Part shown: piece by piece, positions 3,158-59,885 of the stretch
How positions within the stretch are numbered: the stretch's first letter is position 1
Layout of the letters: each line of letters begins with the position of its first letter
Source of the DNA: an uncultured Bifidobacteriaceae bacterium
Lineage (GTDB): Bacteria > Acidobacteriota > Vicinamibacteria > Vicinamibacterales > UBA2999
Length of the DNA: 60,764 nt
Assembly (NCBI GenBank): GCA_964619705.1
Contig: CAZUGF010000011.1
Location: 1 to 60,764, forward strand
Direction of reading: 5' to 3'
Notes under the pieces: generated by a model
Told to the model about the DNA's origin: nothing
What the model saw: only the letters and a program-made list of their open reading frames with translations
Database searches by the model: none
Position numbers and translations under genes: made by a program

Positions 3158-3259
3158 GGCTCTCCTTCGCATCTTCTTCAGTATTCCAGTTCTGGGATAT
3201 CCGCGCAACCGATTGTGTGCGCTGGACACGCCGGAATGGTCCCTGGACTTCGCTGCGTA

Positions 3260-3295
3260 GAAGTACTGCCACTTGTGGACAAGTGGCAGTACTTC
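3260..3295. promoter_or_regulatory. Perfect palindrome (17-bp arms, 2-bp spacer): candidate operator upstream of the XRE gene
   Basis: GAAGTACTGCCACTTGT-GG-ACAAGTGGCAGTACTTC read directly. It lies about 100 nt upstream of the XRE start. A 2-nt loop is too tight for a simple RNA hairpin, which favours a dimer-binding site. Confidence 0.45.
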
Positions 3296-3949
3296 CACAC
3301 ACGCCGGTTGGTGACGCCGGTCGAGCCGTGCGGCACCTTTCTCTTGACGGCCGCGGGCAACGGGCGTAGCCTTTTTCCCATCGTTCGACGGCGACTCAGT
3401 CGCCCTCCTCCATGCGGCCTCAAGCCCTTGGAGGGCTCTTCTCTCGTCGCCCTCAGGGCACGCGAGCGAGCACCAATCAATTCCGGCATCGGATCACTCG
3501 GCTCGAACGGTCTCGTTCGTCAGCATCGGCCCAAGGCCACCTGACCAGCAGGGACGGAGCACGAGAGAGCGCTCACCTTACGCGAGTTCGCCCTCAGGGC
3601 AGTCGCGGGCGGATTGGGCGCCGACCGAATCGACCGGAACCCCTAACGACAGAGGCACCACGCGCGGGCTCCTCCTCAGGAGAGCTCGCCCAAGCGTGCC
3701 GCGGGCGCCGGCGCATCGTGGTTACCACCTTGCGCCACGTCCCGCACTCGTCCGCGCCATCTGGCGCGGAGACTGGTCGTGCCCGCGATCAACGATCGCG
3801 ATTCGCACGCCTCAGGCTCGGCGGTCCGGGACGACGCTCAGCGCGTCATCGGCCGACCGGAGTTCCGCTCCGTTCTCAGGACGGAGCGGCCAGCCTCGAG
3901 TTGATTCATCAACAACAGTTTCATGGTTGCGAGTCAACGCGGGGTTATC

Positions 3950-4155
3950 ATGCGTGGACGAAAGCGATCGGGGCTCTGGCCGCCGGCGCGAACGCCGGAT
4001 GTTGTTTCGCACCACGACGACGCGCCGATTGATGCAGACGCGCAGACGGATGCCGCGCTCCTGGCGCTCGTTCGATTGCTTGCGCGGCAGGCAGCGCGCG
4101 AGCTCTTCGCTCAAACCGTGACCGAGTCGCATCGTTCCATCGACGAGGACCGCGA

Positions 4156-4159
<4 letters not shown>
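3950..4159 (+). CDS. Small hypothetical protein translationally coupled to the serine recombinase gene
   Basis: Track ORF 3923..4159 (ATG at 3923 or 3950). Its stop overlaps the recombinase start as ATGA (4156-4159). C-terminal helix motif LLALVRLLARQAARELF. No recognised domain. Confidence 0.35.
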
Positions 4160-5832
<1,673 letters not shown>

Positions 5833-7220: not shown

Positions 7221-8120
7221 TCACGAGCCGAACAGGCGCTCGAAGTTGCCGCCGAAGATGCGGGCTGCCGCGTCCTCTTCCACGCCGAGCTCATCGAGGA
7301 TGGCGCGCTGTGCACCGTGGATGACGCGCCGCCAGCCGCGCGGGAAGAACGAGGAGTCGGACCCGAAGACGATCCGCTCCGGCCCGGCCACGGCAATCGC
7401 CCGGCGGAAGACTTCCACGAGCGTCAGGCCGGGCACGAACTTGATCCAGCCGTTGGAGCTCGATGTGTCGAAGTGGATCGACGGACAGGCATCGGCCGCC
7501 ATGAGCGCCTCGCGGAAGAACCCGCCGCCGAAGTGGGGCAGGATCACCGGCACGGTGGGGAAGCGCGCCGCGACGGCCGCCACCGCGAGCGGATCGCCCA
7601 GGCGCAGGTCGAGCAGCGTCGGCAGGCCGAGGCGCGTGCGGGCCTCGACCGAGAAGTAGCCGCAGTGCACGAACACCGCGCCGCCGTAGCGGGCGGCCGC
7701 GTCGAAGACGGCGGCCACGCGCTCATCGTCCAGCCGGTAGCGGTGCAGGGCGGGGAAGAGACAGGCGCAGCGCAGCCCGAGCTCCGCGTAGGCGCGGCCG
7801 GCACGCTCCACACCGTCCGGCGCCGCCGGGTTGACGAGGAAAAAGCCGACGAATCGCGTCGGGTGCGCGCCGACGGCTGTGGCCACGGACTCCTCGTCGC
7901 CGGGGATGCTCGCAATCAGCGTCGCGCGCGACACGTGGTGCCGGTCGAGCTCCGCTACCCACCGCCGCGCCAGGGCCAGCGGGTCGCCCGGCGGCTCCCA
8001 GCCGAGCTCCGCGGCCACCGCGTCCGCCGTGGCCCCGGCGTCCGTGCCGTGCTTCTCGCGGCCGAGTGCCTCGAAGAACCGCCTGGAGAAGAAGTGGCAG
8101 TGGCTGTCGTGGACCGTCAT
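7221..8120 (-). CDS. Amidohydrolase family protein (amidohydrolase_2 / TIM-barrel metal hydrolase)
   Basis: N-terminal DSHCHFF metal-binding motif, VFVHCG, ILPHFGGG, and FGSDSSFFP near the C-terminus. Confidence 0.85.
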   Translation of the reverse strand: MTVHDSHCHFFSRRFFEALGREKHGTDAGATADAVAAELGWEPPGDPLALARRWVAELDRHHVSRATLIASIPGDEESVATAVGAHPTRFVGFFLVNPAAPDGVERAGRAYAELGLRCACLFPALHRYRLDDERVAAVFDAAARYGGAVFVHCGYFSVEARTRLGLPTLLDLRLGDPLAVAAVAARFPTVPVILPHFGGGFFREALMAADACPSIHFDTSSSNGWIKFVPGLTLVEVFRRAIAVAGPERIVFGSDSSFFPRGWRRVIHGAQRAILDELGVEEDAAARIFGGNFERLFGS

Positions 8121-8165
8121 TGCACCTGTTCCTGCGCGCGCGTGTGTCCGGTGGAGCCGCCCATC

Positions 8166-9491
8166 TCAGAAACTGTACTCAAAGCCGATGAGCGGCGTGA
8201 CCTTGTCCCGCAGCCCCTTCTCGTCGAGCTTGAAGAGCAGGTTGACGTCCACGAGGGCGCGCCCGAACACGTTGGCCTTCAGCCCGATGGACCCGCTGAG
8301 CGCGTTGTAGGAATCCCGCCCGAAGACGATGTTCGGGAAGGTGGAGCGGCCGTCGAGCCCGTGGAACTGCTCGAGCCGGAGGCGCTCGGCGTCGATCAGG
8401 TACCGGCCGAGCACGTCGAAGGCCACCGTCAGGTGCGGGCTCACGCTCACGTCGGCGCCGACGCCGTAGCTGACCTGATTCTGGAAGTGCGCGGACTCGC
8501 CCGTGGCGGGGTTGCCGGCGAGCACGCTGGACCCGTTCCACTTGTACCCCGCGTTCGCGTGCGGGGAGAGGCGCTGGTAGGTGGCGGACCAGATCGCAAA
8601 CGGCTGCACGCCCGTCGCGCCGCTCCCGAGCAGGTTCATCTCGTCGCCCGTCGGCAGCCGCAGGTCCACGCCGAGCGCCACGCCCCCGCGGTCGGTCTTG
8701 TGGACGGTGCCCTTCAGGCGGACCATGAGGTCGCCGATGCCGCTCGCCCGCCCGACAGCGGTGAAGATGCGCTGGTCGCCCACGCTGCCGTCGGACTGCC
8801 GGTAGAAGTGCGTCAGTTCGTTGGTCGTGCCCAGCCGGCGGATGCGGGCGTGCGACACGATCTTCAGGTCCGTGGAGACGATCGGCACCGCCAGCGAGAC
8901 ATCGACGCTATCCGTGATGCCGTAGGTGACGAACATCGTGGACTGGCTGACCCGTGCCTCGATGGCATTGCTGGTCGTCACGACGTCCTCGCGCCCGCCG
9001 AGCAGCTCCGCGTTGTCGTGCGTGAAGACCGCGGGCACGCTGCCGAGCGAGATCCCCTCGACCGAATCGAAGGTGAAGCGCTGCACGGCAAAGCCGACGG
9101 ACACGCGCCGCGCGCCGATCGTGTCGGCGCGATCCGCCAGGATGGGACCGAAGCTCTGCGTGGTGCGCTGGAACACGCCGAGCGACGGATCGAACTCGAA
9201 CGTGAAGCCGCCGCCGGGCGACGGCAGCGGCACGCTCACCAACTGGCCGACGAGGGCCGTGCTGAACTGGCCGAAGTTGAACTGGAAGTCGCTGACGAAG
9301 TGCGCGGTGTGCTCCTGCTCACCGGGCAGCGTGGCGAGGCTGTCCACGATCAGGCCGCGCGGCCCGAAGATGTCCGTGAAGATCGTGGCCAGGTTCGGCA
9401 CCGGCGCCGACAGGTTGTAGGGCTCCTGCGCCCCGGCCGTCCGGGCCGTCAGCACCACGCACGCGAACGCCGCCACCAGTCGCCATGCCAT
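8166..9491 (-). CDS. Outer-membrane beta-barrel protein (MetA-pathway/transporter-like)
   Basis: Signal peptide MAWRLVAAFACVVLTARTAGAQE after a strong GGGGAGGG Shine-Dalgarno. Alternating beta-strand pattern. C-terminal GFEYSF with terminal Phe. The track ORF extends to 9539. Confidence 0.75.
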   Translation of the reverse strand: MAWRLVAAFACVVLTARTAGAQEPYNLSAPVPNLATIFTDIFGPRGLIVDSLATLPGEQEHTAHFVSDFQFNFGQFSTALVGQLVSVPLPSPGGGFTFEFDPSLGVFQRTTQSFGPILADRADTIGARRVSVGFAVQRFTFDSVEGISLGSVPAVFTHDNAELLGGREDVVTTSNAIEARVSQSTMFVTYGITDSVDVSLAVPIVSTDLKIVSHARIRRLGTTNELTHFYRQSDGSVGDQRIFTAVGRASGIGDLMVRLKGTVHKTDRGGVALGVDLRLPTGDEMNLLGSGATGVQPFAIWSATYQRLSPHANAGYKWNGSSVLAGNPATGESAHFQNQVSYGVGADVSVSPHLTVAFDVLGRYLIDAERLRLEQFHGLDGRSTFPNIVFGRDSYNALSGSIGLKANVFGRALVDVNLLFKLDEKGLRDKVTPLIGFEYSF

Positions 9492-48779: not shown

Positions 48780-49535
48780 TCAGGTCAACCACAGCAGGAC
48801 CGCGAAGACGATCACGGCAGCCGTCACCACGCGCTCCAGCCAGGCATGTCCGCGCAGCACGGCCACCCGCACGCCGATCAGCCCGCCGGCGAGGTTCCCG
48901 GCGCCGAGCGCGAGCCCGCGCGGCCAGTCCACCGCCCCGGCCCCGGCGAAGATGGCCAGCGAGAGCAGGGTGATCGTCAGGATGGTCAGGACCTTGATCG
49001 CGTTGCCGCGCACCATGTCGAACCCGGTGGCGCTGGTCATGGCCAGCACGAAGAACCCGACACCGGCCTGGATGAACCCCCCGTACAGCCCGACGAGGAA
49101 GAAGCCGAGCGCGCCGGGCCAGCCCATGTGCGGCATGCGCTGCCCGTCGGGCGGCCCCTGCGGGCGGGCCTGACGCTGCCGCCAGACGGAGAGAAGCGTG
49201 ATGCTCACCATGGCCGTGGCGAGGATGCGCGTGAACGCGAAGTCCGGCACGCGCAGCGCTCCCCAGGTGCCGAGTGCCGCCCCCGCCAGTGCGGGCACGA
49301 CGGCCGCGGCCGCCCAGCGCCAGTCCAGGGCGCCGTGCCGGTGGTAGCCCCATGTGCCACTGAGGTTCTGGGCGAGGACGCCGACGCGGTTGGTGGCGTT
49401 GGCGACCGTCGCGGGCAGCCCGAGGAAGAGCAGCAGGGGCAGGGTGAGGAACGAGCCCCCGCCTGCGACGACATTGATGGTGCCGGCCACGAGACCGGCG
49501 GTGGCCAGGAGCGCCAGTTCGAGCGGGTAGGGCAC
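48780..49535 (-). CDS. TauE/SafE family sulfite-exporter-like membrane protein
   Basis: GTINVVAGGGSFLTLPLLLFLG, a second half-repeat GLYGGFIQAGVGFF. I prefer GTG 49535; the track ORF runs to 49697 through a non-hydrophobic low-complexity leader. Confidence 0.75.
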   Translation of the reverse strand: MPYPLELALLATAGLVAGTINVVAGGGSFLTLPLLLFLGLPATVANATNRVGVLAQNLSGTWGYHRHGALDWRWAAAAVVPALAGAALGTWGALRVPDFAFTRILATAMVSITLLSVWRQRQARPQGPPDGQRMPHMGWPGALGFFLVGLYGGFIQAGVGFFVLAMTSATGFDMVRGNAIKVLTILTITLLSLAIFAGAGAVDWPRGLALGAGNLAGGLIGVRVAVLRGHAWLERVVTAAVIVFAVLLWLT

Positions 49536-49626
49536 GCGCGGCGATCGTAGCCGATCGGGGCCGGCTGACGTGGTGAGGGCCCGGAATGCGGGCACTTTCG
49601 GCCCGCCGGGGGCCCGGCCCGCGCAT

Positions 49627-49659
49627 TGGCCACCCATAAGCGCATAAAATGTGTAGAAT
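49627..49659 (+). promoter_or_regulatory. Candidate promoter region upstream of the aminotransferase pair
   Basis: TGGCC-N..-AAGC with GG-N10-GC spacing (49628-49641; weak -12 box), followed by a TAGAAT -10-like hexamer (49654-49659) in an AT-rich patch. AAGGAGG Shine-Dalgarno at 49704-49710. Confidence 0.25.
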
Positions 49660-49716
49660 CCTGTCGGATCGGATACCGCAGGTGGCGCAACCCGCACAGA
49701 ACCAAGGAGGCATCGT

Positions 49717-50898
49717 ATGTCGCTGACCCGTCGGCGGCTCTTTCAGCAGCTCACAACCCGTGAAGGGTCCACGTCTCACGAGTGGATTTCGGCACGCGGT
49801 CGGGAGGCCGGTCTGATGGAGTCTGGCGAACAGGCCATGCCAGCAGGCGTGAAGCCCGTCCGCATTGCCAGCAACGAAAACCCGCTCGGTCCGGGGCAGC
49901 ACGTGCTCGATGCCCTGGTCGGCAAGTTCCCGGAAGCCGCGCGTTACCCGTTCAATGCGAAGCAGACGGAAGGGGCGCTCATCGGCGCGCTCGCCACGTC
50001 GCTCGGCGCCAAGAACGAGAACGTGCTCCTCGGCCCCGGATCAGGTGAGCTGCTGACGCACGCCGTTCGCGCCTTCACCTCCCCCACGAAGCCCCTGGTC
50101 ACCGCGTGGCCGTCCTTCGAGAACCCGCGCGACACCGCCCAGAAGATCGGGTCGGCCATCCGCGAGGTCAAGCTCGACGACCAGCTGCGGATCGACGTGC
50201 CGCAGATGGTGGCCGCTGCCAAGGGCGCGGGCCTGGTGTTCTTCTGCAATCCCAACAACCCGACGGCCACGGTGCACAACCGGACGACGGTCACGGACAT
50301 GGTCAAGGCCATCCGTGCCGCCTCGCCCGACACGGTCATCCTGATCGACGAGGCGTACCACGACTACGTGACGGACGCGTCCTACCAGACGGCCATGGAC
50401 CTGGCGCTCTCGACACCCAAGGTGTTCGTGACGCGTACCTTCTCCAAGGCGTTCGGCATGGCGGGGCTGCGCGTGGGCTACGCGGTGGGTGACCCGGCGA
50501 CGGTCAAGTCGCTCGCGGCCTACAAGATGCCGTACGCGCTCGGCACGCTGTCGCTCGGCGGCGCCATCACGGCGTTTGCCAACACACAGCACATCGAGGC
50601 CGAACGCGCCCGCAACACCGCCGTCAAGGCCTTCGTCGTCAAGGCGTTTGCCGACATGGGCTACCAGGGCACGGACTCGCAGGGGAACTTCATCTTCGTG
50701 AACCTGCGGCGCCCGGCGGCCGGCTTCCGCGACGCGTGTCGCGCCGAAGGCGTGCTGGTCGGACGCGACTTCCCGCCCTATGAGGCCACGCACTGCCGCA
50801 TCTCCATGGGCACCATGGAAGAGATGCAGCGCGCCGTGGGGGTGTTCAGGAAGGTGCTCGGCAGCACCACGACCACGTCCAGCAAGGACGGGCGGTAA
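49717..50898 (+). CDS. HisC-like class-II PLP aminotransferase, N-terminal RR motif without a hydrophobic core
   Basis: IASNENPLGP, YP, FFCNPNNPTA, TFSKAFGMAGLRVGY (PLP Lys). N-terminus MSLTRRRLFQQLTTREGSTSHE. Confidence 0.85.
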   Translation: MSLTRRRLFQQLTTREGSTSHEWISARGREAGLMESGEQAMPAGVKPVRIASNENPLGPGQHVLDALVGKFPEAARYPFNAKQTEGALIGALATSLGAKNENVLLGPGSGELLTHAVRAFTSPTKPLVTAWPSFENPRDTAQKIGSAIREVKLDDQLRIDVPQMVAAAKGAGLVFFCNPNNPTATVHNRTTVTDMVKAIRAASPDTVILIDEAYHDYVTDASYQTAMDLALSTPKVFVTRTFSKAFGMAGLRVGYAVGDPATVKSLAAYKMPYALGTLSLGGAITAFANTQHIEAERARNTAVKAFVVKAFADMGYQGTDSQGNFIFVNLRRPAAGFRDACRAEGVLVGRDFPPYEATHCRISMGTMEEMQRAVGVFRKVLGSTTTTSSKDGR

Positions 50899-50928
50899 AC
50901 CGTGTCCAAGGTCAAGGAGGTTTCCACC

Positions 50929-52083
50929 ATGTCGCTCTCGCGACGTTCGTTCGTTCAGACGCTGGGCGTCGGCGCTGCCGGGATGTGGATCGGATCGCGC
51001 GGACGCGAAGGCTCGCTCTTCGGATCCGAGCCCCTGTTCGCCCAGGGGCCGGCGCCGTCGGTCATCCTGTCCAGCAACGAGAACCCGCTCGGCTGCCATG
51101 CGGACGTGCTCGCCGGCGTCCGCCGCTCGTTCACCGAAGCCGGCCGCTACCCGTTTGCCACCATCGCGGAGGTCTCGGACCTCGTGGCGAAGAAGCACGG
51201 CGTAAAGCGGGAGAACGTCCTGCTCGGCGCCGGCTCCACGCAGATCCTGCGCACGTCCACGCACGTCTTCACCTCGAAGACGGCGGGCCTCGTGGCGCCG
51301 ATTCCGGCGTACGAGGAGTGCGCGGACTACGCGCGCCTGATGGGCCACCCGCTGACCGGTGTCAAGCTGACGCCGGATCTCAGGATGGACATCGACGCTC
51401 TGCAGGCGGCCTCCAAGGGCGCCGGCCTCGTGTTCTTCTGCAACCCGAACAACCCCGTCGCGACGGCCGTCACCGCCGCCGACACCCGGAGCTACATCTC
51501 CACGCTGCTCAAGGGCTCGCCGGACACGACCGTGCTCGTGGACGAGGCCTACTTCGAGTACGCGACGATGCCGGGCTACGAGACGATGATCCCGCTCGCG
51601 GTGGACAACCCGCGCGTGGTCGTGGCGCGGACGTTCTCCAAGTGCTTCGGCATGGCCGGCCTCCGCGTGGGCTATGCCATCGGGCACAAGGACACCATCG
51701 CGAAGATGGCAGCCTGGGACGGCTCCGGCCAGATGAGCGTGCTCGGCCTCGAGGGCGCGCGCGCCGCGCTCGCCGTCCCCGAGCAGTGGGTCAAGGAGGA
51801 ATCGGCGCGCAACGCCGAGGCTCGCAGCTTCACCCAGAAGTGGTTCGCGGATCACGGGTACACGCCCACCGATTCGCAGACCAACTTCATGTTCGTCGAC
51901 ATCAAGCGCCCGGCCCGCGAGTTCCGCGAGGCCTGCCTGGCGCAGGGCGTGCTCGTCGCGCGGGACTTCCCGCCCTACGAGAAGACGCACTGCCGGATCT
52001 CCGTCGGCACCATGGCGGAGATGCAGAAGGCCGTCGCGGTCTTCCAGAACGTCCTCTCCCAGCCGGCCAAGGCGGCCGCCTAG
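50929..52083 (+). CDS. HisC-like class-II PLP aminotransferase with a twin-arginine signal peptide (tandem paralog)
   Basis: ATG 50929, 7 nt after AAGGAGG (the track uses an upstream GTG at 50902). MSLSRRSFVQTLGVGAAGMWIG, LSSNENPLG, FFCNPNNPVA, TFSKCFGMAGLRVGY. Confidence 0.85.
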   Translation: MSLSRRSFVQTLGVGAAGMWIGSRGREGSLFGSEPLFAQGPAPSVILSSNENPLGCHADVLAGVRRSFTEAGRYPFATIAEVSDLVAKKHGVKRENVLLGAGSTQILRTSTHVFTSKTAGLVAPIPAYEECADYARLMGHPLTGVKLTPDLRMDIDALQAASKGAGLVFFCNPNNPVATAVTAADTRSYISTLLKGSPDTTVLVDEAYFEYATMPGYETMIPLAVDNPRVVVARTFSKCFGMAGLRVGYAIGHKDTIAKMAAWDGSGQMSVLGLEGARAALAVPEQWVKEESARNAEARSFTQKWFADHGYTPTDSQTNFMFVDIKRPAREFREACLAQGVLVARDFPPYEKTHCRISVGTMAEMQKAVAVFQNVLSQPAKAAA

Positions 52084-52154
52084 CAGGGGACGTCAGCACC
52101 ACACGGCACGGCCACCGGCACACGGGAGCTGCACGCCGAACGGACAGCCACACG

Positions 52155-52208
52155 AACCGGGTTTCTGTCTCGCGCACGCGGGCACGGAAACCCGGTTTTG
52201 CTTTCTTG
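52155..52208 (+). terminator. Rho-independent terminator after the aminotransferase pair
   Basis: AACCGGGTTTC ... GAAACCCGGTT: 11-bp stem with a 21-nt loop, followed by TTTGCTTTCTT. Confidence 0.6.
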
Positions 52209-52339
52209 CGAGGAGGACGCGCCATCCCTCGACCCGGCCACCCTCATCTCCCGGGCCCGCCGCCCTGACCCGCCTCGCACGGGTCATCGGGCTCTCCCAC
52301 GCCACGGCGCTCGTCGTCGGGACGATCCTGGGCGCATCG

Positions 52340-53584
52340 GTGTTCGTCCAGGCGTCGGAGATCACCGCGCAGGTGGGGTCCGCCGCGGGGGTGCTGCTGG
52401 CGTGGCTCATCGCCGGCGTGCTCACGCTCCTCGGGGCGCTCGTGTGCGCCGAGCTCGCCTCCGCGTTCCCGCGGACGGGCGGGGTCTACGTGTTCCTCCG
52501 CGAAATCTACTCGCCCGCCCTGGGCTTCCTCTGGGGATGGGCCATGTTCTGGATCATGCACAGCGGCATCGTCGCGGCGATTGCGACGGTGTTCGCGCGC
52601 TATGCGGGGACGTTCGTGCCGATGGGGGAGACGGGGACGCGCGTGACGGCGGTCCTGGCCATCCTCGCACTCTCGGCGGTCAACTACGTCGGGACGCGGG
52701 CCGGGACGCGCGTGCAGTCGGGCATCACGCTCGCCAAGGTGGCGGCCGTCGGGTTGATCATCGGCGCGGGCTGGTGGCTCGTGCCATCCGGCCCGCCGCC
52801 GGCGGAGGCCGCGGCCGGGCTCGCGCCGGTGACGCCGGGCGGGCTGATGCTGGCCGTCTCCGCGGGCCTCTTCGCCTTCGGCGGATGGCACATGGTCACC
52901 TACACCGCCGAGGAGACCGTGGATGCGGAGCGGACGATTCCGCGCGCGCTGATGCTCGGCATCGTGGTCGTGACGCTGTGCTACATCGGGCTGAACGCGG
53001 TGTACCTGCGCGTGCTCTCGGTGCCGGAAGTGATCGCGTCATCCCGCGTGGCGGCGGACACGTTCGACCGGCTCGGGCCCGGCGGGGGCAACGTCATTGC
53101 CGGCCTCGTGATGCTGAGCGCCTTCGGCGCGCTGAACGGCATCATCCTCCTCGGGCCGCGCGTGTACTACCAGATGGCACAGGACGGCCTCCTGTTCCGC
53201 TGGGCGGGCGCCGTGCACCCGCGCTTCCAGACGCCGTCGCGGGCCATCCTGCTGCAGGCCATCTGGTCGTCCGCGCTGGTGTGGACCGGGACCTACCGGG
53301 CGCTGTTCACGCGCGTCATCTACACGGAGTGGATCTTCTTCGCGCTGCTGGGCGTCGGGATTCTGGTGCTGCGGCGCCGGTCCGGCTACAATCCGGCGTG
53401 GCCGATGCCCCTGGCTCCCGTGGCGCCGCTCCTCTTCGTCCTGGCGTCACTGGCCATCGTCGTCAACCAGCTCCGTGCGGACCCGGCGGAGAGCGCTGTC
53501 GGCCTGGCGCTCGTCCTGTCCGGCCTGCCCGTCTACTGGATCTGGGCCCGTCGATCCGCCGCGGTCCAGCGGCCGGGGCCATGA
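52340..53584 (+). CDS. APC-superfamily amino acid permease (5' end unresolved)
   Basis: About 12 TM helices. AELASAFPRTGGVYVF. Family-typical N-terminal residues (LTRLARVIGLSHATALVVGTILGAS) continue in frame upstream of the first canonical start at 52340. Confidence 0.85.
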   Translation: MFVQASEITAQVGSAAGVLLAWLIAGVLTLLGALVCAELASAFPRTGGVYVFLREIYSPALGFLWGWAMFWIMHSGIVAAIATVFARYAGTFVPMGETGTRVTAVLAILALSAVNYVGTRAGTRVQSGITLAKVAAVGLIIGAGWWLVPSGPPPAEAAAGLAPVTPGGLMLAVSAGLFAFGGWHMVTYTAEETVDAERTIPRALMLGIVVVTLCYIGLNAVYLRVLSVPEVIASSRVAADTFDRLGPGGGNVIAGLVMLSAFGALNGIILLGPRVYYQMAQDGLLFRWAGAVHPRFQTPSRAILLQAIWSSALVWTGTYRALFTRVIYTEWIFFALLGVGILVLRRRSGYNPAWPMPLAPVAPLLFVLASLAIVVNQLRADPAESAVGLALVLSGLPVYWIWARRSAAVQRPGP

Positions 53585-53663
53585 ACGGCGGCGCCGGACA
53601 CGTGCCCGTGACCGTCGCGGTGTGCGTCGTGCCTTCCCGTCATCCCATTCCCGGGGTTCCGAC

Positions 53664-54638
53664 ATGATCATCGACTTCCACAATCACTACTACCCGCCGG
53701 AGTACCTGGATGCGGTCAAGGCGGGACGCTCGCGAATTCGCATCGACTACGACGCGGAGGACAACCCGCGGCTCCACTACCCGGGCGACTACAACATCCT
53801 CGTGCCGGGCCACCGGGACCTGGACGTCCGTGAGACGGTGCTGGCCGGACACGGCGTGGACCTGCAGGTGGCGACATTCACGACGCCGGGCACGCACATG
53901 GAGGAGCCCGCGCTGGCCGTGGAACTCGCGCGCGCCGTCAACGACGCGTACGCCGCGGAGCGGCAGCGCCGCAAGGCGTTCACCTTCCTGGCCACGCTCC
54001 CGCTCAACGATCCGGCGGCGTCCGTCGCGGAGCTCGAGCGCGCCATGACGACGCTGGGCCTGCCGGGCGCCATGGTGTTCAGTAACGTGAACGGCGTGGC
54101 GCTGGCCGACGCGCGGTACGAGCCGTTGTGGCGCGCAGCCGACGAACGCCGGGCCGTCATCTACATCCATCCCGCGCACCCGCTGGGCGTGGAGGCGATG
54201 GAGCAGTACTGGCTGATGCCGCTCGTCGGCTTCCTGATGGACACGACGCTCGCCGCGGCGCACCTGGTCTTCGCCGGCGTCCCGCGCCGCTATCCGCGCA
54301 TCACGTGGGTGCTGTGCCACATGGGCGGCGCCATCCCGTATCTCGCCGAACGGCTGGATCGGGGCTACGAAGCCTTCGCGGACTGCCGGGCCCACATCGA
54401 CAGGCCGCCGAGCGACTACCTGCGGGAGTTCTACTACGACACGGTCAACTTCGACCCGAAGGCGATGGCCCTGGCGTCCGCGTTTGCGGGGACGGATCAC
54501 ATCCTGGCCGGGAGCGACTACCCGCACCAGATCGGATCCATCCCGAAGATGCTGGAGTCCATTCGCGCGCTGGACCTGCCGGAAGGGGAGCGCCGTGGCA
54601 TACTCGGCGGGAACGCGGCCAGGATTCTGAACCTGTAG
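53664..54638 (+). CDS. Amidohydrolase_2 family protein (ACMSD-like decarboxylase/hydrolase fold)
   Basis: Start MIIDFHNHYYPPEYL (ATG 53664). IYIHP, CHMGG, AGSDYPH. Confidence 0.9.
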   Translation: MIIDFHNHYYPPEYLDAVKAGRSRIRIDYDAEDNPRLHYPGDYNILVPGHRDLDVRETVLAGHGVDLQVATFTTPGTHMEEPALAVELARAVNDAYAAERQRRKAFTFLATLPLNDPAASVAELERAMTTLGLPGAMVFSNVNGVALADARYEPLWRAADERRAVIYIHPAHPLGVEAMEQYWLMPLVGFLMDTTLAAAHLVFAGVPRRYPRITWVLCHMGGAIPYLAERLDRGYEAFADCRAHIDRPPSDYLREFYYDTVNFDPKAMALASAFAGTDHILAGSDYPHQIGSIPKMLESIRALDLPEGERRGILGGNAARILNL

Positions 54639-54680
54639 TGAAGCGGGTGCGTCCACGCGGCCGCACCGGGAGGCGAGACG

Positions 54681-55070
54681 ATGACAGGAACGTGGAAGAG
54701 CGTGTGCGTGGCAGCCGCCATCTGCGCGACGACGGGCGTGGTGGATGCCCTGCAGCAGCAGGCCACGCCCAGCCGGCGGGAGCCGCAGTTCGAGAACAGC
54801 GAAGTGAAGGTGTGGAAGTCCATCATCCACCCCAATCAGCCCCTCGCCCTCCATCGGCACGATCACGGGCGTACGATCGTCACGCTCAAGGGCGGCACGC
54901 TCGACGTCGTGGACGCCAAGGGGGCCACGACGCAGAAGATGGTGTGGGAGACCGGCAAGGCCTACTGGCTCGACGCGGATCCGCCGGGAACCGAGCACGG
55001 CGACATGAACCGCGGCACCGAGACGATGGAAGTGATCGTCGTCGAGTTGAAGAACGACGTGAAGCCGTAG
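54681..55070 (+). CDS. Secreted cupin-domain protein
   Basis: GGGAGG Shine-Dalgarno, signal peptide MTGTWKSVCVAAAICATTGVVDA, cupin His motif LALHRHDHGRT...GTEHG. Confidence 0.75.
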   Translation: MTGTWKSVCVAAAICATTGVVDALQQQATPSRREPQFENSEVKVWKSIIHPNQPLALHRHDHGRTIVTLKGGTLDVVDAKGATTQKMVWETGKAYWLDADPPGTEHGDMNRGTETMEVIVVELKNDVKP

Positions 55071-55096
55071 GCGGCGCGGGGGCCGGTCTCCGCACG

Positions 55097-56327
55097 CTAC
55101 TGTGATCGGCCCCGCGCGGTGATCGGCCACACGGCCTCGACCGTCTCGCCGCGGATGCCGTAGATCTGGTCGTACAGGTTCACCACCGGATCGCAGTGCG
55201 GCACGATCATCTCGATGCGGTCGCCCATCCGGTAGCGGCGCGCGGCCTCCGTGTAGCTGATGACGCCGAACTCATCCGAGCCGGCGTTGTAGTCCATGCC
55301 CGGCTCGCCGACGACCCCGGCGCGCGGCGTGTTGAGGGTGAGCGCTTTGGCTCCGGCATCGGTGGTGAGGCGTCCGGGAAAGCGGTTGTTGAGGATGGTG
55401 GCCACGACCGTCAGCGACGGCTCGAAGTCCCGATAGACCGCGTCGCCGTCCTCGCTGCCGATGGCCAGGTACTGCATGTCCATGAAGACGTAGCTCCCGA
55501 CCTGCACGTCGGTGAAGCCCGGCGTCTGGTGCTGCACGCTGTAGGTGCCCGTCCCGCCGCCGCTGAAGATGTCGGTGCTGAGGCCCGCGCGCGCCATCCG
55601 CGCGCGCGTCTCGGCGTTGGCGGCGACACCCTCCAGTGCCCGGGCCTTGCGCGCGGCAAACCCGTTGACGTGCTGCGCACCGCCGTCGTAGGAGAGCAGG
55701 CCGCGCAGCGTCAGGTTCGGCAGCGTATCCACGAGCGTCGCGAGTTGCAGCGCCTGATCGCCCGCCGGAATCCCGCTGCGCGTCCCGACGGCGACGTCGA
55801 TGACGACATCCGCGGTCACGCCGGCCTCGGCAGCCGCGGCGGAGAGGTCCCGCGCGTTCTGCTCCTCGTCCACCGCCTGGATGAACCGGGGGTTCCGCTT
55901 CGCCAGCTGCATGGCTCGCCGGATCTTGCGCGGCGACAGGTTGGCGGTGGTCATGCAGATGGGCTCGATGCCCTCCGCGGCGAGGGCCTCGGCCTCACCC
56001 AGCTTGGCCGTGCAGATGCCGATGGCGCCGGCGGCGAGCTGCAGCCGCGCAATCGCGGCGCACTTGTGCGTCTTGGCGTGCGGACGGGCGGCAATGCCGT
56101 TGGCCGCGAGGCGCGTCTGCAGCGTCTTGATGTTCCGCTCCAGACGATCGAGGTCCACCGCGAGCGCGGGCGTATCGAGGTCCCACTTGGAGATGCCGAC
56201 GTCCGCCGTGTCGATGCGGCGCATCTCCGCGGCGGTGTAGCCCTTGACGGGCCGGGGGATCCAGATGCCGGCGGCCGCCGTGCCGGCGGTCGTGAGGAAG
56301 GCGCGGCGGGAGGACATGCGGCACATT
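55097..56327 (-). CDS. DSD1-family PLP enzyme (D-serine dehydratase / D-threonine aldolase-like, alanine-racemase N-domain fold) with Tat signal
   Basis: MCRMSSRRAFLTTAGTAAAGIWI. RPHAKTHKC (PLP Lys), C-terminal HCDPVVNLYD. The rest of track ORF 55097..57124 is a shadow of the racemase gene. Confidence 0.85.
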
Positions 56328-56379
56328 CTAGTCCCCTGGAACCACGATGGCTCACGTAATTCCCGGGCGGCGAACGGCC

Positions 56380-57606
56380 CTACTGCTCGGTCATGACGTA
56401 GCGCGTCAGCATCGGGTTGAGGTGCATCAGCAGGTCGTAGACCGATGCGCCGCAGGCGGTGGCCACGTCCTCCGGCCGCGAGCCGTCCTCCCAGTCGAAG
56501 AAGGTGGCCACGTCGCCGGCCCGCACCGCCTCCTCGGCGCCGATCTCGACGAGGGTGTGGCTGGCGGAGACGGACGCGATGACAGGGTAGTGCCGGCCGT
56601 TGATGCGGACGCGCGCGCCGCTGGCTGCGGCACGGGGCCAGCCGTCCGCATGGCCGACCGGGAGCGTGGCGATCCAGGTGTCGCGCGTGGCCATGTACGC
56701 ACGGTCGTAGCCGGCGCTCGTGCCCGCCGTCAGTTGCTTCACGTACACGACGCGCGCGCGGAGGGCGGCGGCCGGCCGGAGATCGAGGCGGCCCCCGGCG
56801 CGCGCCGCCGTGCGGAACGCCGGCGACGGATAGACCCCGTAGAGCACCATGCCGGTCCGCACCATGTCCAGCCACGCGTTGTCGTGCTGGAAGAACGTGT
56901 AGCTCGACGCAGCGTGGCGGCGTCCGAGCGCGATGCCCTCGCGGGCGAGCCCGCCGGTGAGCGCCGTGAACCGCGCCAACTGCTCCTGGTCGAACGCCAG
57001 GTCCTCCGTGAAGGTCATCATCACGCCGGCCAGGCGGACATTCCGTCGCGCCGCGAGGTCCCGGATGAGCGCCGCGGCCTGGCCGTGGGGCACACCGACG
57101 CGGCCGATGCCCGTGTCCACGCACACGTGGATGTCGAGCGGGCGCGCCAGCGATGCGGCGGCCCGTTCCAACTCCGCCCCGATGGGCGTGTAGACCATCG
57201 GCATGACGTCACGCGCCGCCATCGTCTCGAGGTCTGCCGGCGTGAACGGCCCCATCAGCAGCACGGGCTTCGTGATCCCGCGATCGCGCAGCGTGATCGC
57301 CTCGTCCAGCTTGACGACGGCGAAGCCGTCCACGTCCGGCAGTGGCTCGAGCAGCCGCGCGGCGGTGGCGACGCCGTGGCCATAGGCGTTGTTCTTGACG
57401 ACGGCGAGGATCGGCCGCGCACCCGAGGCACGGGCGACTTCGCGGACGTTGTGCGCGAGGTGGGCGGGGTGTACTTCGATCCAGGGGTCGAAGCCGTCGG
57501 TGGGTGCCTGTGCGGGCTTCGATTGCCGGGCGAGGGCAATACGGGGAGGCACGGCCGCCGCCAGCGTGCCGAGCGCGGCGGTGGACAGAAAGGCACGTCG
57601 GTTCAC
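56380..57606 (-). CDS. alr: Alanine racemase family enzyme with Tat signal peptide (periplasmic racemase-like)
   Basis: GTG start. MNRRAFLSTAALGTLAAAVPPRIALA. AVVKNNAYGHG (PLP Lys), VCVDTGIGRVG, GYDRAY, LPVGHADG. Confidence 0.9.
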   Translation of the reverse strand: MNRRAFLSTAALGTLAAAVPPRIALARQSKPAQAPTDGFDPWIEVHPAHLAHNVREVARASGARPILAVVKNNAYGHGVATAARLLEPLPDVDGFAVVKLDEAITLRDRGITKPVLLMGPFTPADLETMAARDVMPMVYTPIGAELERAAASLARPLDIHVCVDTGIGRVGVPHGQAAALIRDLAARRNVRLAGVMMTFTEDLAFDQEQLARFTALTGGLAREGIALGRRHAASSYTFFQHDNAWLDMVRTGMVLYGVYPSPAFRTAARAGGRLDLRPAAALRARVVYVKQLTAGTSAGYDRAYMATRDTWIATLPVGHADGWPRAAASGARVRINGRHYPVIASVSASHTLVEIGAEEAVRAGDVATFFDWEDGSRPEDVATACGASVYDLLMHLNPMLTRYVMTEQ

Positions 57607-57662
57607 GAGCGGAGTATAGCGCCGTGCGCGTGGGGCGGCGAAGGCCCTCCAGGCCCGCCGCG

Positions 57663-59885
57663 CTAGCGTTCGGCGTCCGCGGCGGTTGTCCGCAGCAGCA
57701 GCGCGTCACCGTTCTGCAGGGACCAGCGTGCGAGTGCGCCGCCAAAGGCCGGGTGCGTGCGCAGTGACGCGAAGGCCGGGTCGCGCCGGAGCCAGTGCTC
57801 GTTGTAGTAACAGGGCCGGCTGAACATCGTCTCCAGCGTGGCGAAGGCCGCGTCGTGCAGGCCGGCTTGCGCCTGGATCCGGGCCAGCAGGTAGAGGTAG
57901 AGCGGGCCCTGTGTGGCATCCTTGCTGACGGGCAGCAGCGCCACGGCGCGCTCGGCATGGTCGATGGCCTCCGCCGTGCGGCCCAGGCCGATTGAGACGA
58001 GTGCCAGGGCGGCAACCACCTGAAAATCGTCGGGCGTCCGCTGCAGCCTGCGATCCAGTTCAGCCCTGGCGGCCTCGTAGCTCCTGGCCGCGGCCTCGGG
58101 CCGGCCCATGCTCTGGTAGACCTGTCCGGCCAGCACCGCGGCGGGGAAGCGGAAGTTCGGCGCCATCCAGGCACCGGCCTCGTCCATCGAGTCGATCAAC
58201 TCGAGTGCGCGTTCGTGGCGGCCGTCGAACCACTCCAGCCGCGCGAGCAGGCCCTTGGCGCGGGCGTCGGCCGGCGTCCGCGACTCGAGGGCGGCCTCGA
58301 GCAGTGCCCGCGCGCCGGCAATGTCACCGGTCTCGGTGAAGAGCGTCCAGGCTTCGGGCGTCAGCACGCCGGAGCGGTTGGCCGCCCGTGCGATCCCGAT
58401 GAATCGGCGCGCCTCGGGGAACTGCCGCAGGTGCAGGTAGTGAACGGCGATGAGGTCGGCCGTCGACACCGGGTCGATCGCGAACGCCCGCTCGTAGTTG
58501 GCCCTCGACTCGCGCCAGTGCCCCTGCCGCTGGTCGAGCCAGGCGATGAGCTGCAGGATCTCGGGCGAGTTCGGCAGGCCGAGGGAGGCGATGTCCAGTT
58601 CACGGCGCGCTTCTTCGTACCTGCCGTCGGTGAACAGCATCTGCGCGAGGCCGACGTGACCGTCAGGCAGCGCGGGATCGAGCGCGATGGCCGTGTGCGC
58701 CGCGCGGTACGCGTCCTGTCTGACGGCCGGCGTCCTCTCGGTGGCCGTCCGGTACAGCGACGCGTAGGTGCGCGCCAGCCAGCTCCAGGCGAGCGCGAAT
58801 CGCGGGTCGCGGGCGACGGCCTCTTCCAGTTCCAGGCGTGCCTGTCCGAGGTTGGCCGTGTCCGACGCGCCCTGCTGGTAGGCGGACATGCCGCGAAGGT
58901 ACGCGGTATACGCGTCCACGTCCCCGGTGGGCCGCGCATCCACCAGGCGGCGCTCGCGGGCGTCGAGCACCACCTGCATGGCGCCGGTTACCTGATAGGC
59001 GAGGTCGGCCTGCACGTCGAAGAGATCGGCGAGGGGTGTCTCGTACTGCTCGCTCCACACCGTCGTGTCGTCGGCCGCCCGGATCAGGTGTGCCGAGATC
59101 CGCATGCGCGTCTGGTCCGAGGCGTGGGTCCACCGGATGGCGCCCTCGATGACATACGCGACGCCGAGCTCGGCGGCGATCTGCCGCATGCGCTTGCCGC
59201 CGCGATCGTAGGCACGGGCGGTCGTGCCCGAGAGCACGGACATCCGGTCCAGCCGCGCGAGACGGCTCGTGATCTCCTCCGTCATGCCGGCGACGAAGGA
59301 CTCGTCGGCCGGTCCGCCCAGGTTGATGAACGGGAGCACGGCGACGCGGATCGTGCCGGATGCTGCCGCATCGGCCGGTCCCTCGTTCCACAGCCGGGAC
59401 GCGGCGGTGACGGCCAGCACCACGACCGACAGGGCCGCGGCGGCGGCCCACCACGCGGTGCGCCGTGCCGGAGGGCCGGGTGTGGGTGCCACGGACGGAT
59501 CCGCGCCGCTCGGTGTGCCGCTGTCCGGCGCAGCGGGGCCGGCGTCCGGCGAAGGAGCGGTGCGCTCCACGACCGTGCCGACGAACCGGTAGCCGCGCCT
59601 GGGGACCGTCTCGATGAACGGCGCCCCTCCGCTGCCCTCGCCGAGGGTCCGGCGGAGCAGCGAGATGTTCTGGGCGAGGTTGTTCTCCTCGACGAAGGCA
59701 TTTGGCCACACGAGCCGGAGCAGTTCGTCCTTCGTGACGAGGGTGCCGTGGCGCTCGACCAGGACCACCAGCGTTTCGGTGGCCTTCGGCGTGAGCGGCA
59801 GCGGGCGTCCGTCGAGGAACAGCACCTTCTGCGCCGCGTCGAGGCGGAAGCGGCCGAACTCGTACCGGGATGGGCGGGGGACCAT
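57663..59885 (-). CDS. CadC/OmpR-type winged-helix transcriptional regulator with TM segment, TolB-like and TPR domains
   Basis: YEFGRFRLDAAQKVLFLDGRPLPLTPKATETLVVLVERHGTLVTKDELLRLVWP...ETVPRRGYRF, one TM helix (WWAAAAALSVVVLAV), and a long TPR-like C-terminus. Confidence 0.85.
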   Translation of the reverse strand: MVPRPSRYEFGRFRLDAAQKVLFLDGRPLPLTPKATETLVVLVERHGTLVTKDELLRLVWPNAFVEENNLAQNISLLRRTLGEGSGGAPFIETVPRRGYRFVGTVVERTAPSPDAGPAAPDSGTPSGADPSVAPTPGPPARRTAWWAAAAALSVVVLAVTAASRLWNEGPADAAASGTIRVAVLPFINLGGPADESFVAGMTEEITSRLARLDRMSVLSGTTARAYDRGGKRMRQIAAELGVAYVIEGAIRWTHASDQTRMRISAHLIRAADDTTVWSEQYETPLADLFDVQADLAYQVTGAMQVVLDARERRLVDARPTGDVDAYTAYLRGMSAYQQGASDTANLGQARLELEEAVARDPRFALAWSWLARTYASLYRTATERTPAVRQDAYRAAHTAIALDPALPDGHVGLAQMLFTDGRYEEARRELDIASLGLPNSPEILQLIAWLDQRQGHWRESRANYERAFAIDPVSTADLIAVHYLHLRQFPEARRFIGIARAANRSGVLTPEAWTLFTETGDIAGARALLEAALESRTPADARAKGLLARLEWFDGRHERALELIDSMDEAGAWMAPNFRFPAAVLAGQVYQSMGRPEAAARSYEAARAELDRRLQRTPDDFQVVAALALVSIGLGRTAEAIDHAERAVALLPVSKDATQGPLYLYLLARIQAQAGLHDAAFATLETMFSRPCYYNEHWLRRDPAFASLRTHPAFGGALARWSLQNGDALLLRTTAADAER

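Follow-up and report, generated by a model that had tools for sequence, protein, structure and literature searches.

Pyridoxal-phosphate enzymes with predicted Tat leaders in a Vicinamibacterales gene neighbourhood that appears to be made up of separate units

We analysed a 60,764-nucleotide stretch of DNA (hereafter the window), which is one entire contig (C11) of a metagenome-assembled genome of 4.4 Mb and 170 contigs, and we focused on a group of genes for enzymes dependent on pyridoxal phosphate (PLP) and their neighbours. The plus strand carries, from 49.7 to 55.1 kb, two aminotransferases (AT1 and AT2), an APC-family amino-acid permease, an Amidohydro_2 enzyme and a small cupin. Three minus-strand genes run towards these and encode a CadC-like regulator, an alanine racemase (Alr) and an enzyme of the DSD1 or D-threonine-aldolase type (Table 1). 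The nearest protein matches of the window's genes were labelled Vicinamibacterales/Acidobacteriota. All of the genes listed in a first-pass annotation of this DNA were present, including the permease, the ACMSD-like amidohydrolase and the signal-peptide cupin between the PLP enzymes and the CadC-like regulator that flanks them. That annotation was right about the DSD1-type gene but not about its start, which it placed at 56327; the ATG is at 56326, or at 56317 for the reading that begins MSSRR.

Table 1. Features of the gene neighbourhood; the last row lists loci of other Acidobacteriota that are referred to in the text.
Feature	Position	Strand	Evidence
AT1, HisC-like PLP aminotransferase, half-leader	49717-50898	+	Aminotran_1_2 3.9e-43
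AT2, HisC-like/PtaA-like PLP aminotransferase, full Tat leader	50929-52083	+	TIGR01409 21.1 bits; NF006580 and NF051461 matches
GC-rich hairpin with U-rich tail, probable intrinsic terminator	52154-52209	+	-35 kcal/mol, z -4.6
APC-family (LAT-like) amino-acid permease, start uncertain	52265-53584	+	AA_permease_2 3e-49; reading-frame analysis
ACMSD-family Amidohydro_2 enzyme	53664-54638	+	Amidohydro_2 2.3e-36
Small cupin, Sec-type signal, 129 residues	54681-55070	+	Alignment, AlphaFold2, Foldseek
DSD1/D-threonine-aldolase-type fold-type III PLP enzyme, Tat leader	55097-56326	-	Ala_racemase_N and D-ser_dehydrat
Alanine racemase (Alr), Tat-type leader	56380-57606	-	TIGR00492 246 bits
CadC-like regulator, winged helix and TPR repeats	57663-59885	-	Trans_reg_C 1.9e-15; TPR families
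Loci of other Acidobacteriota in which cupin homologues adjoin exported enzymes	L122:8735-9973; L112:8725-9963; L094:11308-12486; L110:14012-15193; L117:10285-12168; L100:10383-11345		

Contigs from three metagenome runs of one study spanned the gene junctions (49000-57627 or the entire stretch), and the gene order is therefore not a product of faulty assembly. Two of the three bridging runs are possibly the source of the window DNA, and the junction support is thus not fully independent. In the gap between the stop of the regulator and the start of the racemase (57628-57656), the three runs differed by substitutions and single-base insertions, and the contigs of two runs ended there; these differences and breaks indicate strain variation.

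The leaders of the PLP enzymes were compared with TIGR01409, a profile of the twin-arginine translocation (Tat) signal that describes an RR motif followed by a hydrophobic region and has a cut-off of 16.7 bits. AT2 (leader MSLSRRSFVQTLGVGAAGMWIG) and the DSD1-type enzyme (leader MCRMSSRRAFLTTAGTAAAGIWI) scored above this cut-off, at 21.1 and 17.1 bits, respectively, and the leader of Alr fell slightly under it at 14.9 bits. No match to TIGR01409 was obtained for AT1 or for the cupin. The Alr leader, VNRRAFLSTAALGTLAAAVPPRIALA with RQ following, holds an RRAFL motif (RRxFL), a 17-residue hydrophobic stretch and ALA ahead of the likely cleavage point, as judged by eye. The ends of the AT2 leader (GAAGMWIG; 50929-51000) and the DSD1 leader (AAAGIWIP; 56326-56250) resemble each other though the enzymes are unrelated, and a conserved polar motif comes next in each.

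An RR leader was found in 119 of the 120 nearest homologue clusters (90% identity) of AT2, in 108 of 120 for Alr and in 111 of 120 for the DSD1-type enzyme, and the clusters without one were mostly truncated gene calls. Orthologues with as little as 56–62% identity retained the leaders, and these included members of other families of the order. Differences among AT1 leaders fell mostly at third codon positions (52/44/141 for the first, second and third positions). The same test of AT2 leaders gave 90/81/309, a mainly third-position bias that is expected of translated sequence under purifying selection; for Alr and DSD1 there were too few ungapped matches for the test. In alignments with solved homologues, the first matched residue fell between 37 and 49 in Alr and between 41 and 49 in DSD1, so each of these proteins carries an N-terminal extension of about 40 residues. 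The genome also encodes TatC (PF00902, 5.8e-64, contig C105). The first-pass annotation had credited the aminotransferase, the DSD1-type enzyme and the racemase with Tat-type signals, and this stood up, apart from the slightly low score of Alr: the leaders that it quoted were present exactly and were conserved. We concluded from sequence that AT2, Alr and the DSD1-type enzyme, together with the secreted cupin, are very probably extracytoplasmic.

A different explanation of the RR leaders is that they anchor the proteins in the membrane by the N terminus or form cytoplasmic extensions, and that the enzymes act at the inner membrane face or in the cytoplasm. Neither AT2 nor the DSD1-type enzyme has a clear AxA cleavage site, and the conserved motifs SRGREG and WIPRPVKGY come directly after the hydrophobic stretch. 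Alr scored under the TIGR01409 cut-off, and AT1 has the RR motif although it lacks a hydrophobic core, which may mean that the motif serves another role. Against this, AT2 and the DSD1-type enzyme pass TIGR01409, and Alr has RRxFL, a hydrophobic region and ALA directly before an R. The same type of leader is borne by PhoD and the molybdenum oxidoreductases, which are classical Tat substrates of the same genome, and PtaA, a transaminase of the same architecture, is exported by Tat (PMC6206403). We consider it very improbable that the leaders serve only as anchors or cytoplasmic extensions. Because cleavage is unclear in AT2 and the DSD1-type enzyme, the exported forms of these two might be membrane-anchored instead of soluble.

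To our knowledge, PLP enzymes outside the cytoplasm are still considered unusual, and the studied cases are PvdN and PtaA. AT1 and AT2, both Aminotran_1_2 proteins, are 48% identical to each other, and each lies downstream of a strong AAGGAGG ribosome-binding site. The pair scored 213 and 226 bits on the HisC profile TIGR01141, below its cut-off of 276.55 bits, and the sole other HisC-type match in the genome was a signal-less HisC-like copy (C2:119584-120591). On NF051461, the profile for PtaA, AT2 reached 236 bits and AT1 234 bits against an equivalog cut-off of 500, and on NF006580 AT2 reached 271 bits against 444; the alignment of AT2 to both profiles begins at residue 2 and includes the leader. 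AT2 is thus like PtaA of fluorescent Pseudomonas (NF051461; related subfamily NF006580/PRK09105) in being a HisC-like class I/II PLP aminotransferase with an N-terminal twin-arginine leader, but it misses both curated cut-offs and has no pyoverdine context here. It also differs in being encoded by the second gene of a conserved tandem pair, in which the product of the first gene has lost its hydrophobic core. The first-pass annotation had regarded exported HisC-type aminotransferases as outside the standard repertoire, which overlooked a known precedent: PtaA has been shown experimentally to be a Tat-exported PLP transaminase that is translocated with bound PLP (PMC6206403, PMC13673990). PvdN and PtaA are established examples of PLP enzymes that leave by Tat, PLP is among the cofactors carried by Tat, and PtaA homologues occur in species without pyoverdine (PMC6206403, PMC13673990).

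In AT1, the RR motif is kept (MSLTRRRLFQ) and the hydrophobic core is replaced by the polar, charged QQLTTREGSTSHE. This half-leader was conserved across the genus and in the orthologues from two genomes of other families (G028 and G029). Because AT1 has no hydrophobic core, always adjoins AT2 and shares a predicted transcription unit with it, we propose that it hitch-hikes. That is, AT1 would most likely leave the cytoplasm as the partner of AT2 in an AT1/AT2 heterodimer; the alternative would be that it stays cytoplasmic.

Alr passed the 168-bit cut-off of TIGR00492, and its PLP lysine (AVVKNNAYGHG) and catalytic tyrosine (SAGYD) align with those of solved alanine racemases. A second Alr of the genome, on contig C30, is signal-less and 30% identical to the window Alr; the C30 enzyme is likely the housekeeping copy and the window Alr an extra. 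Periplasmic broad-spectrum racemases carry Sec-type signals. On NF009879/PRK13340, a subfamily of signal-bearing Alrs that we take to hold the Bsr-type racemases, the window Alr scored 106.9 bits against a cut-off of 434. It resembles BsrV of Vibrio cholerae and the Aeromonas Alr 4bf5 in having the alanine-racemase fold, in carrying what is probably an N-terminal export signal and in being extra to a cytoplasmic Alr. It differs from them in that its leader looks twin-arginine rather than Sec, and its sequence is nearer to ordinary Alrs (E. coli 2rjg, ~1e-47; 4y2w, 8e-49) than to 4bf5 (4e-31). As the first-pass annotation stated, periplasmic broad-spectrum racemases are known, and they remodel cell walls (PMC7890096).

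These comparisons bear on the possibility that these enzymes, once exported, modify part of the envelope or a metabolite that the cell secretes, rather than scavenging nutrients, with the racemase supplying non-canonical D-amino acids for peptidoglycan editing, as Bsr does, and the transaminases modifying a secreted compound, as PtaA and PvdN do with pyoverdine. The nearest characterised relative of AT2, PtaA, is indeed a periplasmic tailoring enzyme that is also found where pyoverdine is absent (PMC6206403), cell-wall remodelling by periplasmic racemases is on record (PMC7890096), and a signal-less housekeeping Alr elsewhere in the genome agrees with such a role. The scores argue the other way, since AT2 lies under the PtaA cut-off (236 vs 500 bits) and Alr under that of NF009879 (107 vs 434 bits). 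Moreover, the neighbourhood holds no nonribosomal peptide synthetase, siderophore or other biosynthetic genes, and the permease, peptidase and amidase neighbours suggest catabolism instead. We regard tailoring as an improbable role for these enzymes.

The DSD1-type enzyme has an Ala_racemase_N and a D-ser_dehydrat domain, each above its cut-off. Its solved relatives are 6qkb (1e-65), 7dib (7e-65) and 4v15 (6e-61), and residues K59, H193, H347 and D349 of 4v15 are conserved in it; we take these to be the PLP lysine (K59), a catalytic histidine (H193) and two metal ligands (H347 and D349). The enzyme shares its two-domain architecture with the D-threonine aldolases (4v15, 7dib) and with the D-3-hydroxyaspartate aldolase BhcC (6qkb), at E values of 1e-61 to 1e-65. 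In contrast to these solved proteins, it bears a Tat leader of about 40 residues that lies outside their aligned range. It also scored 285 bits on NF045642, the profile for BhcC 3-hydroxy-D-aspartate aldolase, where the cut-off is 690, and, unlike BhcC, it has no BHAC-cycle context here. Its orthologues retain the leader while their neighbours vary. A literature search returned no paper on a periplasmic D-threonine aldolase and none on an alanine racemase with a Tat leader. The Tat-leader clades of Alr and of the D-threonine-aldolase type thus appear to be experimentally undescribed, and they would be new variants by prediction. In a genome of another family, the DSD1 orthologue (L145, G029:C39) is preceded by two genes with RR leaders, of 391 and 412 residues (3169-5579 and 7983-9215).

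The organisation of these genes into transcripts was judged mainly from RNA folding. The hairpin just 3' of AT2 (52154-52198) is followed by UUUUGCUUUCUU, and none of 200 shuffled sequences was equally stable. A GC-rich hairpin was found 3' of AT2 in most of 27 related loci, with stem sequences that differ from one to another; the criterion of a T-rich tail was satisfied in 14 of the 27, and several of the loci that were not flagged are also T-rich by eye. The hairpin is therefore a probable conserved intrinsic terminator, which would close an AT1-AT2 unit. Folding gave no significant hairpin at the other intergenic junctions. A scan for consensus promoters and terminators yielded nothing; it allowed loops of 3-8, and the long hairpin seen on folding escaped it. 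The regulator, Alr and DSD1 all run in the same direction on the minus strand, separated by 53-56 nucleotides. From the hairpin after AT2 and the lack of structure at the other gaps, we read three predicted units: AT1-AT2; permease-amidohydrolase-cupin; and, on the other strand, regulator-Alr-DSD1.

About 130 related loci entered the comparison. We compared the neighbourhood with 20 loci around AT2 homologues, 80 around cupin homologues (GTDB species genomes) and 10 around DSD1 orthologues; counts for the cupin-centred loci include only those with sufficient flank. The amidohydrolase lay immediately upstream of the cupin in 42 of 75 loci and the permease upstream of it in 35 of 69. An AT pair was found within 10 kb of the cupin in 24 of 58 loci, and Alr within 9 kb downstream in 16 of 44. 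Neither DSD1 nor the CadC-like regulator was found anywhere in the cupin-centred loci (0 of 44 for each). The AT pair occurs without the permease and amidohydrolase in three genomes (G004, G008 and G015), and the permease, amidohydrolase and cupin frequently occur together without the AT pair. Only AT1-AT2 and permease-amidohydrolase-cupin are conserved as units.

The backbone order in the genus is ppk, TauE, AT1, AT2, (HD-like), permease, amidohydrolase, cupin, (variable S9 peptidase, pirin or PD40) and Alr. Because ppk and TauE belong to the same conserved backbone, the order points to inherited synteny rather than to selection for co-regulation. The racemase is near the AT pair only within the genus; in the three other families in which a tandem AT pair and a Tat-leader Alr orthologue were both present (G020, G028 and G029), they were separated by more than 1.5 Mb or did not share a contig. 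DSD1 and the regulator adjoin Alr only in the window and in the nearest relative (G003), where the order is swapped. In a third genome of the genus (G018), DSD1 is ~7 kb from the racemase; in G013 and G014 it is on other contigs, and on the single contig of G028 it is more than 1 Mb from either AT pair.

These results allowed us to weigh a reading of the kind that the first-pass annotation suggested, namely one co-regulated periplasmic module for D-/L-amino-acid conversion, in which the racemase, the D-specific aldolase and the transaminases would work one after another ahead of uptake through the permease, with the CadC-like regulator in control. All of its parts lie within 10 kb and three have Tat leaders, and the regulator, Alr and DSD1 follow one another closely in one direction, and folding gave no significant hairpin in the gaps that separate them. 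Alr was confined, among the sampled genomes, to those with an AT pair, and relatives have a secreted S9 peptidase between Alr and the cupin, as might suit such a module. On the other hand, a conserved terminator-like hairpin follows AT2, and DSD1 and the regulator were missing from all 44 cupin-centred loci with sufficient flank. The displaced DSD1 genes, the swapped order of Alr and DSD1 in the nearest relative and the separation of Alr from the AT pair beyond the genus likewise disagree with it. Furthermore, the amidohydrolase resembles decarboxylases of aromatic carboxylates rather than enzymes of amino-acid metabolism, and it is placed in the cytoplasm. The conserved synteny in relatives that the module presupposed was thus not borne out, and we judge a single module of this kind to be quite unlikely. 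What survives of it is the extracytoplasmic amino-acid chemistry, which fits a genome with at least eight Tat-leader PLP enzymes and, also with Tat leaders, an asparaginase, an amidase and a DAO-family enzyme. The evidence does not support one module of all nine genes.

We lean instead towards reading the locus as a group of neighbouring genes for amino-acid chemistry outside the cytoplasm that are inherited and transcribed separately, and not as one pathway operon, a reading that we hold to be somewhat probable. The features that weigh against it are the sub-cut-off leader of Alr, the unclear cleavage and possible anchoring of AT2 and the DSD1-type enzyme, and an association between racemase and transaminases. 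Near the cupin, Alr was seen only in loci with an AT pair (10 of 17, vs 0 of 18), and in 31 sampled genomes every one with a Tat-leader Alr had an AT2 match at E<=1e-60, in a tandem pair wherever the assembly shows it. This hints that racemase and transaminases may be functionally related in some looser way, but it is drawn from relatives, which are not independent samples; several genomes have an AT pair without Alr.

The separate-units reading is also supported by a survey of exported enzymes across the genome. Among 19 matches to class I/II aminotransferases, four have full Tat leaders (AT2 and enzymes on C65, C115 and C9) and AT1 has its half-leader. There were seven Ala_racemase_N matches, and the two that bear leaders are both in this window. 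A further 20 strong Tat candidates include two PhoD proteins and four molybdenum oxidoreductases, and also three Aminotran_1_2 and two Aminotran_5 proteins, a DAO-family FAD oxidoreductase, an asparaginase, an amidase, an Amidohydro_1 protein and a TldD-like protein. Five of the Tat-leader PLP enzymes of this genome lie outside the window. Export of amino-acid and amide chemistry is, by these predicted signals, a habit of the lineage, and several such enzymes within 10 kb are consequently less remarkable than they first seemed. We attribute the clustering to a lineage that exports many amino-acid and amide enzymes and to inherited local synteny; genes whose leaders look alike may cluster suggestively without forming an operon. 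Elsewhere in the same genome, a paralogue of the APC permease adjoins a Tat-leader class I/II PLP enzyme (C9:6460-7407 and C9:8449-9837).

Under the separate-units reading, AT2, the racemase and the D-threonine-aldolase-type enzyme would fold and bind PLP in the cytoplasm and then cross the inner membrane via Tat; the leaders, their conservation and the presence of TatC are the grounds for this proposal. In the periplasm, the racemase would interconvert D- and L-alanine, and perhaps other amino acids, and the aldolase-type enzyme would cleave D-beta-hydroxy-amino acids to glycine and an aldehyde, neither reaction needing a co-substrate. The transaminase pair may turn amino acids or amino-bearing metabolites into keto compounds, as PtaA does. 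The permease, the ACMSD-type enzyme and the secreted cupin would form a second, better conserved unit.

A more ambitious proposal is that Vicinamibacterales carry out a large share of their amino-acid turnover in the periplasm with a battery of Tat-exported PLP enzymes, in which the Tat-racemase, the Tat-aldolase and the AT1/AT2 heterodimer, with AT1 hitch-hiking on the signal of AT2, jointly salvage D-amino acids of soil necromass before uptake. We consider this joint scheme unlikely, if worth stating. The finding is of wider concern because, in an abundant soil lineage, two clades, one of racemases and one of the D-threonine-aldolase type, have conserved Tat leaders, and they occur with PtaA-like transaminases and further PLP, FAD and amidase enzymes with export signals. 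If there is true export, the known range of Tat cargo would widen, and D-/L-amino acids would be processed outside the cytoplasm in soil, with a bearing on the turnover of peptidoglycan-derived D-amino acids.

The regulator contains a hydrophobic stretch that resembles a membrane segment, as judged by eye. The start of the permease was examined in its reading frame between 52198 and 52342, where no ATG, GTG or TTG lies upstream of the first transmembrane segment and the only in-frame near-cognate starts are CTG 52265 and ATC 52286. The CTG at 52265 is inside a CTGA that is conserved in relatives, and in most of the relatives printed this CTGA overlaps an out-of-frame TGA that is apparently the stop of an upstream HD-like gene; the overlap suggests termination-reinitiation. 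The sequence GAGGAGGA at 52210-52217 lies 47 nucleotides upstream of CTG 52265, too distant to serve that start. In many relatives of the genus, a 271-residue Tat-leader protein (MDIDRRAFLASVGG) with a weak HD-domain match lies between AT2 and the permease (L022:7306-8121; also L021, L025 and L026); it is absent here.

The best solved relative of the Amidohydro_2 enzyme was human ACMSD (3e-36, full length), followed by LigW and gamma-resorcylate decarboxylase. The likeness to this family includes the N-terminal HxH metal motif, and the enzyme is, as predicted from these relatives, of the non-oxidative decarboxylase or hydratase type. It has no signal peptide and is accordingly placed in the cytoplasm. 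It differs from the family in its setting, which has no kynurenine- or lignin-pathway neighbours; its partners are the APC permease and the small secreted cupin.

The cupin scored 17.6 on Pfam Cupin_2, below the threshold of 27.2, and its fold is backed by AlphaFold2 (pLDDT 90.5) and Foldseek. The alignment showed H58, H60, H62 and H106 to be invariant in close orthologues. The top Foldseek matches were 3lag and 2fqp, cupins of unassigned function, and the PDB sequence search, the protein atlas and Foldseek returned for it only cupins of unknown or unrelated function. At E<=1e-3 its family has 477 representative clusters; most of the full-length homologues that were inspected have a Sec-type signal and an RREPQFEN motif. 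The window cupin is like RPA4178 (3lag), BP2299 (2fqp) and the Mn-cupin TM1459 in its single-domain fold and His-rich metal site, but differs from them in its signal peptide, its conserved N-terminal RREPQFEN motif and the spacing of its HxHxH. The idea of a kynurenine pathway, with the cupin as a 3-hydroxyanthranilate dioxygenase acting with ACMSD, was dropped because the cupin is secreted, has only ~105 residues when mature and matched no Pfam family but Cupin_2, and that weakly, and because no other pathway genes are near. The genes next to cupin homologues in other Acidobacteriota encode DAO flavoenzymes or beta-eliminating lyases with Tat leaders, a secreted amidase or a secreted Amidohydro_2 protein (Table 1, last row). 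These neighbours hint at a product shared by exported amino-acid enzymes as the substrate of the cupin.

In the relatives with a secreted S9 peptidase of the prolyl-oligopeptidase type between the racemase and the cupin (L025:5854-7977 and L021:6856-9003), one locus, L025, also has a pirin gene (8107-8994); in the window, the position of the S9 peptidase is filled by the DSD1 gene. Six contigs labelled Bifidobacteriaceae, Lysobacterales or Acidimicrobiia (L065, L074, L121, L067, L129 and L134) hold parts of the Vicinamibacterales-type cluster at 56-80% identity and are probably mislabelled or mis-binned records. The parts vary by contig and comprise the cupin with ppk, TauE, the AT pair, the permease/amidohydrolase or Alr.

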